Below are positions 789-57,191 of a DNA stretch of 62,054 nucleotides, piece by piece; the stretch's first letter is position 1, and every line of letters begins with the position of its first letter. A program made the position numbers and the translations under genes. Below the pieces are notes generated by a model. The model searched no databases and was not told the origin of the DNA. It was given only the letters and a program-made list of their open reading frames with translations. Origin of the DNA: Candidatus Limnocylindria bacterium (lineage in GTDB: Bacteria > Chloroflexota > Limnocylindria > P2-11E); assembly GCA_036276035.1 (NCBI GenBank), contig DASUCM010000105.1:1-62054 (forward strand). Reading direction: 5' to 3'.

Positions 789-862
789 GGGCGATTAGCA
801 CAGCTGGTTAGTGCGCACGGTTCACATCCGTGAGGTCGCTGGTTCGAATCCAGCATCGCCCA
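789..862 (+). tRNA. tRNA-Val (anticodon CAC)
   Basis: Manual cloverleaf: acceptor gggcgat/atcgccc, D arm gcac-agctggtta-gtgc, anticodon arm cacgg-ttCACat-ccgtg, T arm gctgg-ttcgaat-ccagc, discriminator a. Confidence 0.95.
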
Positions 863-881
863 CCGGGTCGTCTGACAAGCG

Positions 882-39365: not shown

Positions 39366-40259
39366 CTACCCGCTCCGCTTCAGGCGGCCGGTCCGCTTCG
39401 CGTACCGCTCGGCCGAGATGAACAGCCGGAGGCCGATGGGGATCGAGAGCGCGCCGATGAGCAGCGCGGGCCAGACGAGCGGCCACAGCGTGACGAGGTC
39501 GGCCCCGTCGAGGAGCGCCTGGCGCATCCCTTCGATGACGTACGTGGCCGGCGAGATGACCGAGAGCGCCTGGAGCCAGCCGGGAAGGACCGTCGTCGGG
39601 TAGTAGACGCCCGACACGAGGAGCACGACGGCCTGGACGATGTAGGCCATCTGGAGCCCCTTCTCGGTCCAGATGAGCGGGAAGCAGGCCGAGGCGATGC
39701 CGAGACCGATGAACGCCATCGTGCCGACGCCGAGCAGCGCGACCGCCGAGAGGGCGTTCGCGCGGGAGAGGTCCACGTCGATGAAGAGCACGACCGCGAA
39801 GAGCACGAGGATGCTGATGACCGCTGCGCGGAGGATCGTGCCGATCGACATGCCGATGAGGTGCGTGAGCCGCGGCACCGGCGCCATGAACGTGTACTCG
39901 ATGGTGCCCTCCCACTTCTCCCAGGCGATGATCTCGGCGATGTCCTCGAAGACGATGCCGAGGAAGCGCCAGGCGATCGTGCCGACGAGCAGGTAGAGGA
40001 CGAAGCGCGACGTCGTCGCCGGATCCACCTGCTCGCCGGTGATCGCCGGTGCCGCGAGACCGATGTACGCGACGGAGAGGGACGTCGTGATCGAGTAGAT
40101 GATCCAGACGACCTCCCAGAGCCAGTAGCGCTTCATCAGCGCGACCGTCCGCTCGACGAACGCGTACGCGAGCTTCGGCTGCTGCGTGAACGTCGAGAGC
40201 CTTTGACTGGGGCTCGGACCGGGCCGGCGAAGCCGGGCCGGTCCGGACGTCTTGATCAC
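39366..40259 (-). CDS. ABC-2 type transporter permease
   Basis: Six hydrophobic segments. The GTGA overlap with the upstream ATPase stop is present. Confidence 0.85.
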   Translation of the reverse strand: MIKTSGPARLRRPGPSPSQRLSTFTQQPKLAYAFVERTVALMKRYWLWEVVWIIYSITTSLSVAYIGLAAPAITGEQVDPATTSRFVLYLLVGTIAWRFLGIVFEDIAEIIAWEKWEGTIEYTFMAPVPRLTHLIGMSIGTILRAAVISILVLFAVVLFIDVDLSRANALSAVALLGVGTMAFIGLGIASACFPLIWTEKGLQMAYIVQAVVLLVSGVYYPTTVLPGWLQALSVISPATYVIEGMRQALLDGADLVTLWPLVWPALLIGALSIPIGLRLFISAERYAKRTGRLKRSG

Positions 40260-41068
40260 TCTGCGTCATCCACGATGCTGCGGCCCGTCACCGTCATGAA
40301 GACCGACTCGAGGTCGCCGCCGAACCGCTCGCGCAGCTCGTCCGACGTGCCCTCGGCCACCAGGCGCCCGCCGTGGATGATGCCGATGCGGTCCGCGAGC
40401 CGCTCCGCCTCGTCGAGGTCGTGCGTGGTCAGGAGGATGCTCGCGTCGTGCTCGTCCCGAAGGTCGCGCACGAACGTCTGCACCTCCCGCTTGCTCCGGA
40501 TGTCGAGCCCGGTCGTCGGCTCGTCGAGCAGCAGGAGCATGGGCGTCGAGAGGAACGCGCGCGCGATAGACACCTTCTGCTGCATGCCGCGCGACAGCTT
40601 CTCGAGCGGCTCGTCGAAGCGTGCCGAGGGGATCCCGAGGCGGCGGAGGATCGTCGATGCGGTCGCGCGCGACGCTCTCGCGTCGACGCCGTACAACCGT
40701 CCCGCGTAGACGAGGTTCTCCATCGCCGAGAGCTTCTTGAAGAAGGACGCCTCGACCGAGACGCGGTTGATGAGCCGCTTCACCGTGAGCTCCTCGAGCC
40801 CGACGTCGTGGCCGAAGACGCGGACCTCGCCCGCGTCGGCCTCGAGCAGCGTCGAGAAGAGCCGGATGAGCGTCGACTTGCCGGAGCCGTTCGCGCCGAG
40901 CAGCCCGTAGATCTCGCCCCGGCGTACCGAGAGCGAGACGTCGTCGACGGCACGGATCTGCTTGCCGTTCCGCGAGCCGCGGAACGACTTGCTGACCCGC
41001 TGGGCGAGCAGGGCGGACCCGGCCACCCGGGCCGGGGATCGTGGCGCGTCGCGTGTCGCGAGAGCCAT
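40256..41068 (-). CDS. ABC transporter ATP-binding protein
   Basis: Walker A GANGSGKST, signature LSRGMQQKV and Walker B LLLLDEPT. In-frame ATG 41068 has AGGGAA upstream. The track start at 41146 lies inside the terminator hairpin. Confidence 0.9.
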   Translation of the reverse strand: MALATRDAPRSPARVAGSALLAQRVSKSFRGSRNGKQIRAVDDVSLSVRRGEIYGLLGANGSGKSTLIRLFSTLLEADAGEVRVFGHDVGLEELTVKRLINRVSVEASFFKKLSAMENLVYAGRLYGVDARASRATASTILRRLGIPSARFDEPLEKLSRGMQQKVSIARAFLSTPMLLLLDEPTTGLDIRSKREVQTFVRDLRDEHDASILLTTHDLDEAERLADRIGIIHGGRLVAEGTSDELRERFGGDLESVFMTVTGRSIVDDAE

Positions 41069-45967: not shown

Positions 45968-46006
45968 ACACGAAGGAGGCCCGCCGACGGCGGGCCTCCT
46001 TCGTGT
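45968..46006. terminator. 18-bp perfect hairpin, bidirectional terminator between convergent genes
   Basis: acacgaaggaggcccgcc / ggcgggcctccttcgtgt with a 3-nt centre. Confidence 0.8.
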
Positions 46007-46169: not shown

Positions 46170-46258
46170 CCGGGTCACCTCCTTCCGGAGGGCCGGTATT
46201 CGCACGACCCGTGCCAGCCGGTCAGTCGGGCGGGCGGGCGGGCGAGCGGTGCCTCCGG

Positions 46259-46642
46259 CTAGGCCGACGCCGGCCCGGAGTGCTGCTGCACCAGCTGCAG
46301 CAGGTCGTCGAGCTGGAACGGTTTCGCAAGGAAGCCGTCCGCGCCGATCTCCTTCGCGTCCTTGGCCACGTCGAGCGCTGCCGTGACGATGACGATCGGG
46401 GCGTGCGGGCCCGGCCGCTGGCGGTAGGTGCGGGCGAACTCCCAGCCATCCATGACCGGCATGCGCATGTCGAGGAGGATGACGTCCGGCCGCCCCTGGG
46501 CGACCCGGTCGAGCGCCTGCTGGCCATCCGTCGCTTCCGTGACCTCGTAGCCCTCGTCCGCCAGGACCGTGCGGACGAACTCGCGGATGCCCTTGTCGTC
46601 ATCGACCACGAGGACCCGGGCGCAACGGTTCTCGGTTCCCAT
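46259..46642 (-). CDS. single-domain (CheY-like) response regulator
   Basis: RVLVVDDD, DVILLDMRMPVMDG and GADGFLAKPF. The start is ATG 46642 (or 46690). Confidence 0.85.
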   Translation of the reverse strand: MGTENRCARVLVVDDDKGIREFVRTVLADEGYEVTEATDGQQALDRVAQGRPDVILLDMRMPVMDGWEFARTYRQRPGPHAPIVIVTAALDVAKDAKEIGADGFLAKPFQLDDLLQLVQQHSGPASA

Positions 46643-46810
46643 CCACGCGGCAGGGTACGCCCGCGGGGCCACCCGCGCGAAGAGGACCATCGCCTCACTC
46701 CCGTCGGGCTAGCCCCTTCGGGGCAGACGCGTATCGGACTGGCCCGCCGGAGGCAGCCGGGTGCTGCGCGTCACATCTCCGGAGCAGCGCCGCTCGTACG
46801 GTCTGGTGGG

Positions 46811-48196
46811 ATGAGGGTGGCGGGCGCGCACGGGCTCAGCCCGGTCGCGCGCTTCTCGATCGCGCTCGCGGTGATCCTGGCCGTCGCGGGCCTCACGCTC
46901 GCGGCCGGGACGACCATCCTGTTCGGCCGCTACGTCGAGACCGAGACCGCGCGCTTCACCGAGGACGCCGTCGGCAGCCACTTCGGCACGCTCTTCGAGA
47001 ACGCGGTCTTCGAACGGCCGCTCACCGCCCAGGAGCGCAACGCGCTCGAGGCGCAGGTCGTCTACCACTTCTCCGTCTACGGGATCCTCGCGACGCGCTT
47101 CTACGAGCCGAACGGCCGGATCGTCTTCTCCTACGAGACGAGCGAGATCGGCCGGTCCGTGCCGATCGAGCAGTCCGCGGCCCTGCAGTCGACGCTCGCC
47201 GGCAACGCGCCGCCGCCGGTCCGCCGCGACGTCGTCGCCGACATGCGCTTCGGGATGCCGGGCATGGTCCCCGCGAACGCGCCGGCGTGGATGGGAGATC
47301 ACAGCCACGGCCCGTCCTCGCGTCAGCCGGACGTGCGCCGCGCCGGGACGCTGGAGACCTGGGTCCCGGTGGTCCAGGGAGGGAAGACCATCGGCGCCGC
47401 CGTCGTGTGGCGCTACATCGAGCCGATCGACGCCGCGCTCCGTCAGATCCAGACCCTCTCCGCGGCCATCATCGCGCTCGCCGCTCTGCTGCTCTGGCTC
47501 GTGCTGCGGGGCGTGTACGTGCGGTCGTCCGAGCAGATCGTCGCGCAGAGCCACGCGCTCGGCCGTGCGCTCGCCGAGACGGAGCGGACCTACGACGCGA
47601 CACTGCACGCGCTGTCCAGCGCGCTCGACGTCCGCGACACGGAGACCGAGGGCCACGCGCGCCGCGTCGTCGAGTACATGGAGCTCATCGCGGAGGAGCT
47701 CGGCCTGCCCGAGGAGATGTACGCCACGCTCCGGCGCGGCGCGCTGCTGCACGACATCGGCAAGATCGGGGTGCCCGACCATGTCCTGCGCAAGCCCGGG
47801 CCGCTCACGGATGCCGAGTGGACGGTCATGCGCCGGCATCCCGACCTCGGCGCGGGGATCATCGAGGACATCCCGTTCCTCGAGGAGGTCGCCGTCATCG
47901 TCCGCGCGCACCACGAGCGCTGGGACGGGCGCGGCTACCCGGACGGTCTCGCAGGCAACGACATACCGCTCGGCGCGCGGATCTTCGCGGTGGCCGACTC
48001 GTTCGACGCCATGACCTCGGACCGCCCCTACCGGCTCGGCCGCCCGATGCAGGAGGCGCTCGGCGAGATCGTCGGCGGGCGCGGCACGCAGTTCGACCCG
48101 CAGGTCTGCGACGCATTCCTGCGCATACCGCGCGAGCGGCTCGCCTCGGTCTACGCCGCCGCGCCGCACTCTCACCCGGTGGCTGCGGCCAGCTAG
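46811..48196 (+). CDS. membrane-anchored HD-GYP domain protein (c-di-GMP phosphodiesterase family)
   Basis: In-frame ATG 46811, two TM helices flanking a periplasmic segment, then HDIGKIGVP and HHERWDGRGYP. Confidence 0.88.
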   Translation: MRVAGAHGLSPVARFSIALAVILAVAGLTLAAGTTILFGRYVETETARFTEDAVGSHFGTLFENAVFERPLTAQERNALEAQVVYHFSVYGILATRFYEPNGRIVFSYETSEIGRSVPIEQSAALQSTLAGNAPPPVRRDVVADMRFGMPGMVPANAPAWMGDHSHGPSSRQPDVRRAGTLETWVPVVQGGKTIGAAVVWRYIEPIDAALRQIQTLSAAIIALAALLLWLVLRGVYVRSSEQIVAQSHALGRALAETERTYDATLHALSSALDVRDTETEGHARRVVEYMELIAEELGLPEEMYATLRRGALLHDIGKIGVPDHVLRKPGPLTDAEWTVMRRHPDLGAGIIEDIPFLEEVAVIVRAHHERWDGRGYPDGLAGNDIPLGARIFAVADSFDAMTSDRPYRLGRPMQEALGEIVGGRGTQFDPQVCDAFLRIPRERLASVYAAAPHSHPVAAAS

Positions 48197-48213
48197 TCAC
48201 CACCGTGCTTTGT

Positions 48214-48330
48214 GTGGCTGGATGGCCACGCGGCTCGGCCAGGCTTCATCACGTTGAGCGATCCCTACCGTTGTGACGCCTCGCCGGCTTCGCCGGCTCG
48301 ACCCGTCCTCGCCGCGTGCCATCCAGCCAC
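48214..48330 (+). repeat. copy A of a ~117-nt hairpin-enclosed repeated element
   Basis: An 18-bp outer stem (48214..48232 with 48313..48330) encloses a core that matches the reverse complement of 57074..57191. Confidence 0.7.
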
Positions 48331-48347
48331 TGGAGACGGGTGCGCGT

Positions 48348-49907
48348 CTAGCCCTCGGCGCGCAGCTCTTCGAGGTCGAGGTCGCGCTCGATGCGGCGGC
48401 GGACCTCGTCCGAGATGGCGCCGCGGGCGTGCAGGTCGAGCGCCGCTTCGCGCTCCGCCTCGATGAGCTCCCGGCGGATGCGGCGGTGGACGATGAGCTC
48501 CTCCTCGGGGGCGGCGTCGGGACCGTCGTGGTGCTCAAGAGCGTGCGTGGCCTGATGGGAGTAGCGGGCCTCGAGCGCATCGAGCAGCTCGCCATGGTCC
48601 GAGTACGGCGCGCGAAGCTCCGCGAGCCGCGCGAGCGCCGCGTCCGCCGTCTCCGCACGGGCGTGCGCTTCCTCGTGCCCCGTGTCGTCGGCGACCGTGA
48701 CCCCGAGCCCACGGATCACGAACGGGAGCGTGAGGCCCTGACCGACGAGCGTGGTCGCGATGACGCAGTACGTGATGAAGATGAGCAGGGGTCGCTCGGC
48801 GAGATCGTGTGGGAGCGCGAGCGCGGCGGCGAGCGAGACCGCGCCGCGCATGCCGGCCCAGCCGAGGACGACGACCCACTGCCATGGCGGGTTCGGGTCA
48901 CGGCGGCGGAGCGACGGGCTGAGGAGGCGCGGCAGGTACGTCCCCGGGAAGACCCACACGAACCGCGCGACGATGACGGTCAGCGATACGAGGGCCCCGA
49001 GGCCGAGCAGGCTGCTCGCGGGAATGTCGCCGAGGCCCGCGACGACGGCCGGCAGCTGCAGGCCGACCAGCGTGAAGACGAGCCCGTTCAGGACGAACAC
49101 GACCATCTGCCACACCGCCGCGCCCGCGACACGCGCCTCGCTGGAGAGCGTCCGCGAGGCGTGCTGCCCCACATAGAGGCCCGCGGTGACCGCGGCCAGG
49201 ACGCCGGAGACCCCGAGCTGCTCGGCCGGGAGGTACGCGACGTACGGCGCCAGGAGCGAGACCGTGATCGAGACCGGCGTGTCCGAGAGCCGCCGCCGTA
49301 GCTCGGTCACCGCGAAGCCCACGGCCAGGCCGAGGAGCACTCCGCCGAGCCCGACCGTCAGGAAGCGGCCGCCCGCTTCGACGAGCGAGAAGCTTCCGGT
49401 GACCGCGGCGAGCAGCGCGATGCGGTAGGCGACGAGCGCGGTCGCGTCGTTCAGCAGGCTCTCGCCCTCGAGGATCGTCACGATCCGCTTCGGCGCGCCG
49501 ACGCGCTGCAGGACCGCGGTCGCGGCGATCGCGTCCGGCGGCGCGACGATCGCGCCGAGCGCGAACGCGATCGGCCAGCTCATCGACGGCACCGCGAGCC
49601 GGACGGCGACGGCGACGGCGGCGATGGTGAAGAGCACCAGCCCGACCGCGAGGAGCGCGATCGGCCGCGTGTTCCGCCGGATGTCGCGGATCGACGTGGA
49701 CGCGGCCGCGATGTACAGCAGCGGCGGCAGGAAGAGGAGGAAGACGAGGTCCGGCTCGAGCTCCACGTGCGGCAGGCCCGGGACGAGCCCGATCGCGGTG
49801 CCGCCGACGACCATGAGCAGCGGGTACGGGACGCCGATGCGCCGGGCGACGGCGGCGAGCGCGGCGACGACCGCCATGAGCCCGAGGACGAGCTCGATCT
49901 CGCTCAT
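48348..49907 (-). CDS. Na+/H+ antiporter (CPA1 family, NhaP-like) with cytoplasmic C-terminal domain
   Basis: About 12 TM helices, with LFLLFLPPLLY and ESLLNDATALV motifs. Confidence 0.9.
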   Translation of the reverse strand: MSEIELVLGLMAVVAALAAVARRIGVPYPLLMVVGGTAIGLVPGLPHVELEPDLVFLLFLPPLLYIAAASTSIRDIRRNTRPIALLAVGLVLFTIAAVAVAVRLAVPSMSWPIAFALGAIVAPPDAIAATAVLQRVGAPKRIVTILEGESLLNDATALVAYRIALLAAVTGSFSLVEAGGRFLTVGLGGVLLGLAVGFAVTELRRRLSDTPVSITVSLLAPYVAYLPAEQLGVSGVLAAVTAGLYVGQHASRTLSSEARVAGAAVWQMVVFVLNGLVFTLVGLQLPAVVAGLGDIPASSLLGLGALVSLTVIVARFVWVFPGTYLPRLLSPSLRRRDPNPPWQWVVVLGWAGMRGAVSLAAALALPHDLAERPLLIFITYCVIATTLVGQGLTLPFVIRGLGVTVADDTGHEEAHARAETADAALARLAELRAPYSDHGELLDALEARYSHQATHALEHHDGPDAAPEEELIVHRRIRRELIEAEREAALDLHARGAISDEVRRRIERDLDLEELRAEG

Positions 49908-54395: not shown

Positions 54396-54703
54396 TAGGC
54401 CGAGCAGGCCTCTAAGCCGGGTTCTGTCCCGCCCCTCCTCTCGGAGGTGCGGTGACGGTCATCCATCTCGGGATCGGAGGTCACCCTCCGCCTCTAGCGA
54501 TCGACCCGGGGCGGTGCGGGCGACACCGTGGCCCCTGCGTGATCTTGCTCCAGGAAGCGCTTGCCCGTTTCACCCCGCTTGCGCGGGTTCGTCACTGTGG
54601 CGCTGGCCTCGCCTCACGGCGGGCGGGCGTTACCCGCTTCCCTGCCCTGCGGAGCCCGGACTTTCCTCGGCTTTCGCCGCGACCGTCCGGCCTGCTCGGC
54701 ACG
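54396..54703 (-). ncRNA. rnpB: RNase P RNA (bacterial type A)
   Basis: On the minus strand: GAGGAAAGUCCGGGCUCC (54668..54651), ACAGAACCCGGCUUA (54427..54413), GGUAACGCC and AGAUGGAUGA motifs. The P1 helix pairs ccgagcaggcc (54699..54689) with ggcctgctcgg (54410..54400). The ends are approximate. Confidence 0.9.
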
Positions 54704-56831: not shown

Positions 56832-56845
56832 TCGATCCCCTTCCG

Positions 56846-56919
56846 TGGGCCTGCCTGGATTCGAACCAGGGACCAGCGAATTATGAGTTCGCCGCTCTTG
56901 ACCACTGAGCTACAGGCCC
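56846..56919 (-). tRNA. tRNA with CAT anticodon (elongator Met, or Ile2 if lysidinylated)
   Basis: Manual cloverleaf: GGGCCTG/CAGGCCC acceptor, GCTC-AGTGGTCAA-GAGC, GCGAA-CTCATAA-TTCGC, CCTGG-TTCGAAT-CCAGG, discriminator A. The anticodon stem lacks the initiator GGG/CCC. Confidence 0.95.
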
Positions 56920-57073
56920 TAGGAGGCTCGAGCGGATGCTTGCATACGCGTCGAGCCGACGACGGGCCTGTGAGCGGAGCGATACAGGCCCTGGGAGCTC
57001 CGCGCGAACGTCAATCGTACGAGGAGAGAGCGCACTTCAACGTGAGCGCCGGCCGAAGTCAGACCGTTGACAC

Positions 57074-57191
57074 GGCGAGGGGGCGCGTGGCGGCGGGCGG
57101 GTCTGAGCCGGCGAAGCCGGCGAAGGCGTCACAACGGCAGGCGATCGAGGCCGTGATGAAGCCTGCCCGCCCGCCACGCGGCCCCCTCGCC
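57074..57191 (-). repeat. copy B of the ~117-nt hairpin-enclosed repeated element (opposite orientation to copy A)
   Basis: A ~25-bp outer stem (57074..57101 with 57166..57191) encloses the shared core. Confidence 0.7.

Follow-up and report, generated by a model that had tools for sequence, protein, structure and literature searches.

The window and its two palindromic copies

The analysed window is positions 1 to 62,054 of contig DASUCM010000105.1 (forward strand) from the Candidatus Limnocylindria bacterium assembly GCA_036276035.1. Candidatus Limnocylindria is an abundant uncultured class of Chloroflexota in soil and freshwater. The window carries a cell-division cluster (ftsZ, ftsA, murB, murC, murG and ftsW), parAB, an RNase P RNA and tRNA genes, and was therefore taken to be core chromosome. 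Two copies of a non-coding palindromic element of about 117 nt were present, copy A at 48214-48330 (+) between the convergent HD-GYP and NhaP genes and copy B at 57074-57191 (-) in the spacer between the divergent tRNA-Met and parA genes. GC skew between A and B showed no replication-origin signal. An earlier note on this DNA had picked out both copies from the letters alone, and reading of both regions confirmed their placement. The results below suggest that A and B probably belong to a family of small, non-coding, G+C-rich palindromic mobile repeats that move together with their arms.

The two copies shared 52 identical bases in four blocks (14, 13, 19 and 6 nt) within a core of 66-70 nt, as first claimed, while an automatic alignment gave 51 identical positions over 70 columns. 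Between the blocks lay a variable stretch of 14 nt and two indels of one base each. A 27-base pattern made from two of the blocks occurred twice in the window against 0.00 expected occurrences in 100 shuffles. The long closing stem proposed for each copy was also recovered, with gtggctggatggccacgcg pairing with cgcgtgccatccagccac around one bulged C in copy A (48226/48227, in the 5' arm) and ggcgagggggccgcgtggcgggcggg pairing with cccgcccgccgccacgcgccccctcgcc in copy B. The predicted folding energy was -65.2 kcal/mol for A and -87.2 kcal/mol for B (z = -5.8 and -7.5 compared to dinucleotide shuffles), and the reverse strands of both copies were predicted to fold about as stably as the element strands. 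With the covariance model R1, the core of copy A scored 90 bits and that of copy B 95.6 bits. The coordinates of the features are given in Table 1.

Table 1. Coordinates of copies A and B, of the blocks they share and of other features in the window.
Feature	Position	Strand	Description
tRNA-Val(CAC)	789-864	+	
Left CTAG	48193-48196	+	HD-GYP stop TAG at 48194-48196; left copy of 4-bp direct repeat
Outer left 17 nt of insert	48197-48213	+	tcaccaccgtgctttgt; in no other copy; pairs weakly with 48331-48347
Copy A 5' arm	48214-48239	+	Outer gtggctggat copy-specific; inner GGC[C]ACGCGGCTCGGC homologous to other copies
Copy A core	48240-48305	+	caGGCTTCATCACG, variable 14 nt, ccgttgtGACGCC, hairpin 2 TCGCCGGC-ttc-GCCGGCTC, gacccg
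Copy A 3' arm	48306-48330	+	tcctcgc cgcgtgccatccagccac
Outer right 17 nt of insert	48331-48347	+	tggagacgggtgcgcgt
Right CTAG	48348-48351	+	NhaP stop on - strand (48348-48350); right copy of direct repeat
RNase P RNA class A	54397-54698	-	170 bits
tRNA-Met(CAT)	56845-56919	-	
Copy B 5' arm	57166-57191	-	ggcgagggggccgcgtggcgggcggg; outer ggcgaggg common only to orthologous copies, partly there at empty sites
Copy B core	57098-57165	-	A-type blocks with single-base insertions t (57124) and a (57104)
Copy B 3' arm	57074-57101	-	cccgcccgccgccacgcgccccctcgcc; last four bases of core block gacccg fall inside
Shared block caggcttcatcacg	A 48240-48253; B 57165-57152		
Shared block ccgttgtgacgcc	A 48268-48280; B 57137-57125		
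Shared block tcgccggcttcgccggctc	A 48281-48299; B 57123-57105		
Shared block gacccg			6 nt, fourth block in both A and B

Filled and empty sites at loci A and B

For locus A, homologues of HD-GYP with 92, 92, 90 and 81% identity were traced to contigs of four relatives (collected contigs are cited by L numbers). In these relatives the convergent HD-GYP and NhaP genes overlapped by four bases (..gccagCTAGccctc..) with no spacer and no hairpin, one tetranucleotide serving both stop codons (..CTAGccctc.. in L223, L224 and L225, ..CTAAccctc.. in L218). The window read ..gccagCTAG[151 nt]CTAGccctc.. at the same place, and the 151 nt consisted of the 117-nt hairpin with 17 nt on either side. An independent Logan contig (L001) was identical to the window at copy A, which makes an assembly artefact there unlikely. 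Copy A is a lineage-specific insertion with CTAG duplicated, and since the relatives have overlapping stop codons without spacer or hairpin, its arms arrived with the 151-nt insert. The earlier note had placed A where a terminator between the two convergent genes would be expected; the position was correct, but the relatives had no terminator hairpin there. An origin of the arms as inverted copies of local flanking sequence was also considered and rejected, as comparison of the HD-GYP gene end with the arm of A was not significant (p = 0.3-0.4), the empty A sites lacked arm sequence and the inner arms were common to several loci.

The neighbourhood of copy A was variable in gene content. The HD-GYP gene (about 46680-48196) was located between a response-regulator gene and NhaP in the window, L218 and L223-225, while the response-regulator and NhaP genes were adjacent without HD-GYP in L002, L191 and L212, and an Ion_trans_2 gene took the place of NhaP in L219-221. 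The response-regulator/HD-GYP/NhaP junction is a rearrangement hot spot. The response-regulator gene was on the - strand at 46259-46642 with a start near 46642, and the 661-aa open reading frame (ORF) called at 46211-48196 was over-extended; HD-GYP most likely starts at the ATG at 46811 and has 461 aa (459-463 aa in homologues). In addition, an S8 peptidase gene (+) was separated from a small DUF5670 gene (-) by a hairpin at 45968-46006 whose 19 bp pair perfectly around a single-base loop (ACACGAAGGAGGCCCGCCG/CGGCGGGCCTCCTTCGTGT). Relatives (L218, L219, L223 and L191) kept it, its outer pairs having changed in a compensatory way, and it looks like an ordinary gene-end hairpin.

For locus B, the best ParA match in the representative genomes was only 60% identical, and orthologues were therefore obtained from the protein index. 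Copy B was present in L070, L187-190 and L208 (ParA 92-95% identical) and absent in L191, L192, L209, L210 (87-88%) and L212-217 (84%). Close relatives differ by gain or loss of copies. No target duplication was visible at locus B. The empty sites of L191 and L209 read gtgcGAGGG..tCCT, and that of L210 read gtgtGAGGG-tgcagg-CCCTCtaag, in which a hairpin of 5 bp occupies exactly the position of the outermost arm bases; this could be a small older target hairpin or what a deletion left behind.

These sites bear on the proposal of the earlier note that a miniature insertion lands in the loops of older hairpins, of which the insertion held good and the older hairpin at A, missing in four relatives, did not. 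Under this proposal only the core and short inner arms would be mobile and the outer arms would be old local sequence. We consider it rather unlikely. It agrees with the 5-bp hairpin at the empty site of L210 and the partial one in L191 and L209, with outer arms that are copy-specific and nearly perfectly paired over 8-10 bp, and with the long perfect hairpins that this genome has between convergent genes, such as that at 45968-46006. However, all 151 nt at A were new, including the 10-bp outer stem and the 17 nt on either side. Filled parA sites had 9-10 bp of perfect pairing (gtgcgaggga/tccctcgcac) compared to 5 bp or less at empty ones, whose 3' flank (taag) differed. Finally, the stretch over which two copies matched ended at a different point for each pair of copies, and no fixed element end was seen.

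Two further observations were made in the parA spacer. The ParA proteins of L188 and L189 were identical (fourfold-site difference 0.05), yet their upstream spacers and elements differed by 19-26%, a contrast which suggests recombination, with a breakpoint at the start of parA, or replacement. Upstream of tRNA-Met, the stretch from the element site to the tRNA held one or two hairpins of the form gggcccgtagccc-ttcg-ggctc.ggcccgtc in the window (56960-57000, -), L187, L191 and L209. They begin like the 5' end of tRNA-Met and may be partial tRNA duplications.

A family with a constant core and a variable closing helix

Further copies, which the earlier note had proposed to search for, exist in relatives. 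An exact scan with the 27-base pattern over 185,579 species genomes gave no match and a junction pattern gave chance matches only. The metagenome scan produced two loci, L070, which is the orthologue of copy B, and L071, a new locus by an sdhA-like gene. A relaxed pattern, built after the orthologues revealed which positions are conserved, gave seven real copies in the genome scan, six in the metagenome-assembled genome (MAG) ant_bin.637 (JBKJTV01) and one in the Chloroflexota MAG MGR_bin249 (JACDAF01), while GCA_964547395.1 and GCA_046717325.1 are further MAGs with the family; its other eight matches were due to chance, being in unrelated phyla and without the rest of the element. In the DNA collected here, nhmmer and the covariance model R1 separated true copies (75-98 bits) from everything else (<23 bits) and brought in two more, L208 and, at the end of L199, a second copy that is truncated. 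Overall, 15 full copies were found at about 10 loci in independent assemblies from NCBI, ENA, JGI and Logan. Two copies were in the 62-kb window, and at least seven copies (six full and one cut by a contig end) were in ant_bin.637, which also held the best genome match to the window NhaP (87% identical). The plasmid and viral contig collections contained no similar element. As far as exact-pattern scans show, the family is confined to MAGs of Candidatus Limnocylindria/Chloroflexota and to related soil metagenome contigs.

The Rfam search bore out the view that A and B belong to no known RNA family, as neither matched even at E = 10, and no match was obtained at eleven further copy-bearing loci. 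The best overlapping match at any copy was MIR918, which scored 15.5 bits (E = 1.3) where the gathering score is 268. A weak match to the element at 40216-40305 of the window was discarded, as it is an ordinary hairpin at a gene end and is like the core in hairpin 2 only. This hairpin (40225-40260, -) reads GGACCGGCCCGGC-TTC-GCCGGCCCGGTCC, and GCCGGC-TTC-GCCGGC may be a common terminator-like motif in the source genome.

Chance similarity or an assembly artefact would make the family spurious, and this we hold to be next to impossible. Copies were often at contig ends (L071, L197 and L199), and L197 looked chimeric around its element. Against this, the expected number of matches was 0.00 and copy A was identical in the Logan contig; the 15 full copies in independent assemblies refute the idea. 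Contig L197 (JBKJTV010000347; positions 1-220 were compared) starts with a 39-nt inverted copy of dnaE2 coding sequence with two synonymous mismatches, a sequence that recurs beyond the element. Its left half fits the antisense arrangement seen in L198, and in its right half the core is in frame on the sense strand. This points to two haplotypes that carry the element in opposite directions, to a genuine inverted duplication or to a chimera made in assembly.

Alignment of the 15 copies showed an asymmetric core of about 65-70 nt, consisting of GGCTTCATCACG, about 22 variable nt, and GACGCC-(N)-TCGCCGGC-loop-GCCGGCTC. GGCTTCATCACG was constant except for one T variant in L208, and TTCATCACG was likewise constant in the core except for one T variant. 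GACGCC was constant and was followed by one variable base and then by hairpin 2, whose stems TCGCCGGC/GCCGGCTC never varied around a loop of TTC, TGC, TCC, TGCG or TTCG. Part of this conservation is fixed by the search pattern itself, a constraint of which GCCGGCTC, the flanking bases and L208 are free. Hairpin 2, being constant, offers no covariation information. The hairpin 1 proposed for the core kept its basal pairs GGC.TC/GA.GCC, but its upper part was specific to A and B and was broken in most copies. It had no covariation, and since its 5' strand stayed constant while the upper pairs broke, the motif is conserved as sequence and not as a helix.

The closing helix was of a different character. 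It had 25-30 bp with a bulged C, of which the inner 16-20 bp were common within subfamilies and the outer 8-10 bp varied per copy. The statement that the stems of A and B share no sequence was accordingly correct for the outer 8-10 bp, but the inner part (about 16-20 bp) was homologous, including the bulged C (GGC[C]RCGYGGC...CGG.CAG with the partner GACCCG.CC..GCCGC). The alignment of A with B was significant in a shuffle test for the 5' arms (p = 0.005) and the 3' arms (p = 0.04), and inner arms were also common to B-type copies and L201 and to L195 and L199. Over all copies under the full-structure model, 21 of 25 pairs were altered on both sides and 89% of cells were paired, so that the arms stay paired across copies while their sequence changes. 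When the partners were slid by one to three columns, 33-48% of cells were paired, and none of 500 shuffles reached the observed values. This alignment was fitted to the structure model and takes in one weak reverse-strand match of L208; a MAFFT alignment of seven subfamily-1 copies showed 13 compensated pairs. Mismatches of G.T and A.C type in the arms were without strand bias, and for this reason folding as RNA and folding as DNA cannot be told apart. Weaker complementarity was also found beyond the main stem (cgaagtc/gacttcg at window B, 16-nt outer arms in L201 and the outer 17 nt at A). At the fixed parA locus, pairing in B persisted across fourfold-site differences in parA of 0.05-0.39 (0.2-0.39 in all but one pair) while the arms differed by 6-44%, a rough comparison, as the L187 alignment was poor and the L188/L189 pair was clearly affected by recombination.

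A palindrome free of selection on folding would also look like this if intrastrand template switching (quasipalindrome correction) kept the arms complementary, sometimes extending them into the flanks, and the covariation were a mutational by-product, an account that we regard as improbable. It fits arms that differ at about 0.2-1 times the parA fourfold-site rate and are still paired, the runs of weaker complementarity outside the main stem in B, L201 and A, and wobble mismatches without strand bias. However, the rate comparison is the rough one described above, the comparison of the arm of A with the neighbouring gene end was negative, and the spread of the core to new loci and its conservation are left unexplained.

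The copies had no consistent relation to genes. In L198 the element was antisense within a 1140-aa ORF for DnaE2 (error-prone polymerase) and was read through in frame, occupying a linker that varies in length and sequence among homologues between conserved blocks. DnaE2 was dropped as a ruler for the insertion ends since this variation makes the boundaries ambiguous. The remaining copies were tightly between genes in either orientation, including upstream of sdhA (L071), upstream of accA (L194), downstream of accD (L199), between two convergent methyltransferase genes and between a beta-propeller gene and a NUDIX gene. Five copies were sense and just 3' of a gene (A, L199, L195, L201 and L203), while B, L071 and L194 were upstream of and antisense to the nearest gene. 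No promoter-like or terminator-like (U-tract) sites were found on either strand around A or B, and the element differs from an intrinsic terminator in having no U-run after the helix and a stem of 20-28 bp with a branched loop of 66 nt. Pfam scans found no transposase or recombinase domain among 36 window gene candidates or in the genes flanking other copies. In L199 (5733-5918), on the downstream side of accD, two copies were arranged tail-to-tail with 35 nt between them, and the contig end truncates the second. This second copy resembled that at 427-562 of L194, a different contig from the same MAG, where the copy is upstream of accA. A flip of the core between its arms was considered for this pair, and no flip was needed, as the collinear alignment scored 58 and the inverted one 50.

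This context speaks against part of the first reading offered by the earlier note, that of a structured RNA family whose closing helix covaries. Strong covariation was found, as that reading had it, but the genomic context, the presence or absence of copies in relatives and the fate of hairpin 1 do not support a dedicated RNA gene. More broadly, the element could be a functional structured RNA, cis-acting or a small RNA, in which selection on folding keeps the helix and a protein or RNA binds the multiloop core; this is an unlikely explanation. The helix covaries with G.U and A.C intermediates, its pairing is kept at the orthologous parA locus up to the largest fourfold-site difference of 0.39, the single-stranded core motifs are invariant and the five sense copies sit just 3' of a gene. 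Conversely, orientation and distance to genes are inconsistent (B, L071 and L194 upstream and antisense; L198 antisense in a coding region), copies come and go between close relatives, promoter-like and U-tract sites were not found, arm mismatches lack strand bias with both strands folding equally, hairpin 1 is not maintained and no Rfam family matches.

Nature of the element and comparison with known repeats

On the best reading, the element is not a dedicated RNA gene and at A not a core dropped into an older hairpin. Copies were inserted with their arms and were gained and lost, pairing was maintained, the core was constrained in sequence and no consistent relation to transcription was seen. 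[quoted passage not shown] The element would move as a single strand, probably of DNA, folded on itself. The conserved core, held out at the helix tip, would be what an enzyme encoded in trans recognises, and the arms would matter by pairing and not by sequence; this model is the simplest because the helix is variable while the core at its tip is invariant. Pairing may be kept because transposing copies are selected for it or because one arm is copied from the other. After insertion, transcripts of the neighbouring genes would include the element as a stem-loop of high stability, which would be tolerated at the ends of genes and between cistrons. There it may stop transcription or protect mRNA 3' ends, a putative effect that is plausible from position alone.

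Several points weigh against a mobile repeat of this kind. The CTAG repeat at A coincides with both stop codons, and selection could also have shaped it. Copy A is the only clean comparison of a filled with an empty site, and its 17-nt flanks were found in no other copy, which leaves the ends of the mobile unit undefined. At the empty B sites, the position of the outermost arm bases still reads gtgcGAGGG..(C)CCT(C). The persistent pairing at the fixed parA locus needs a host-level benefit or arm-to-arm copying, and a purely selfish immobile copy does not explain it. The census of copies rests on exact-pattern scans. Finally, neither an autonomous partner nor a mobilising enzyme was found, and we infer the way of moving entirely.

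A variant of the mobile repeat, which we put forward as an unlikely possibility, is that the enzyme reads structure, taking the core at the tip of any hairpin or cruciform that is long enough and cutting at the base of the palindrome, with the arms re-templated by intrastrand copying. How much arm and flank the unit carries would then vary. This would account for the way in which similarity of the arms is nested (core, inner arm of the subfamily, copy-specific outer arm), for the symmetric 17 + 17 nt at A and for an arm divergence that is near-neutral and always compensated. Such mobilisation possibly also explains the inverted-duplication contig L197. If true, it would be a mode of transposition without a described counterpart in bacteria.

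The family belongs to no named family and is most likely a small palindromic mobile repeat with an unusual layout. Closest in kind, by comparison of described properties, are RPEs and the YPAL/RU-2 elements of Yersinia. RPEs are non-coding palindromic repeats of about 105-150 bp with a long stem-loop, restricted to a lineage, and occur between genes as well as in frame within genes (PMC2229807). The present family is similarly a lineage-bound palindrome found between genes with one in-frame gene copy, in the linker of DnaE2, and the L198 copy occupies its gene without disruption as RPEs do. It differs in having no sequence similarity to RPEs, about 70-80% G+C, a conserved centre and arms that are the least conserved part. 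RPE-4 and RPE-6 have a CGTC tag next to the stem (PMC3733652), whereas the Limnocylindria family has no CGTC tag by its stem. YPAL/RU-2 elements are not A+T-rich, lack terminal TA, and have internal inverted repeats, target duplications and targets at or near dyad symmetry (PMC2229807). The small hairpin at the empty parA site and the palindromic CTAG target at A recall these targets. However, YPAL is 168 bp long and conserved throughout with duplications of 3-26 bp, in contrast to a single 4-bp case and variable arms here, and no sequence relationship was found between the two.

Correia/NEMIS, ERIC and RUP elements are small, non-coding and multi-copy, show filled/empty polymorphism with a short duplication containing TA, and give transcripts with long stem-loops (PMC2229807). 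The Limnocylindria units (117-151 bp) were likewise small, non-coding and multi-copy, with a filled and an empty state and a target duplication in the one clean case at locus A. The known elements differ by their conserved terminal inverted repeats, which in RUP match an insertion sequence, and by being mostly A+T-rich. Conserved terminal inverted repeats were absent from the present family, and neither a related insertion sequence nor a longer element with the ends of the core was found in the DNA collected.

REPs are 20-40 bp long with GTAG or CGTC at one end of an 8-9 bp stem, and are thought to be handled as folded single-stranded DNA by RAYT, a tyrosine (HUH) transposase (PMC3733652). They are G+C-rich, are mostly downstream of genes and sometimes in replication or repair genes, and have subsets with different stems (PMC3733652). 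The present element resembles REPs and REPINs as a G+C-rich extragenic palindrome, and hairpin 2 of its core (GCCGGC-TTC-GCCGGC) looks REP-like. It differs in that its unit of 117-151 bp is three to six times too long, it has no GTAG tag, and its GACG is 5-6 nt from hairpin 2 on the 5' side (element strand) and does not adjoin the stem. No RAYT gene was found among the window genes scanned with Pfam. The handling of REPs by RAYT transposases is an analogy for the proposed core-recognising enzyme acting on a folded strand (PMC3733652).

Other structured DNA and RNA elements were considered and rejected, namely parS half-sites, group II intron domain V, retron msr/msd, dif/Xer sites and integron attC sites, whose motifs or layout did not fit and for which Rfam was silent. 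The attC sites are imperfect palindromes of 57-141 bp that follow a gene and are read by structure as a folded single strand with extrahelical bases; their outer boxes (R''/L'' and L'/R') are conserved and their centre is variable. The layout in Limnocylindria is the opposite, with a conserved centre and a variable outer stem. Neither A nor B had GTTRRRY/RYYYAAC ends, and no integrase or cassette array was found.

A full-text literature search on Candidatus Limnocylindria and repeats found no paper on such an element, and as far as that search shows this is the first interspersed repeat family for the class. Its layout is unusual in that the centre is conserved in sequence and the long helix in its pairing alone. 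Should mobility require the helix, the copies offer a natural series of stem variants for finding a core-recognising enzyme; should arm-to-arm copying keep it, they offer a clean natural case in which palindromes are homogenised in bacteria. The elements mark recent insertions and deletions and could separate closely related strains. They also affect MAG assembly, being found at contig ends and in one contig that looks chimeric, and they invite over-extended ORF calls. Finally, the in-frame copy shows that the linker of DnaE2 tolerates about 44 foreign residues.

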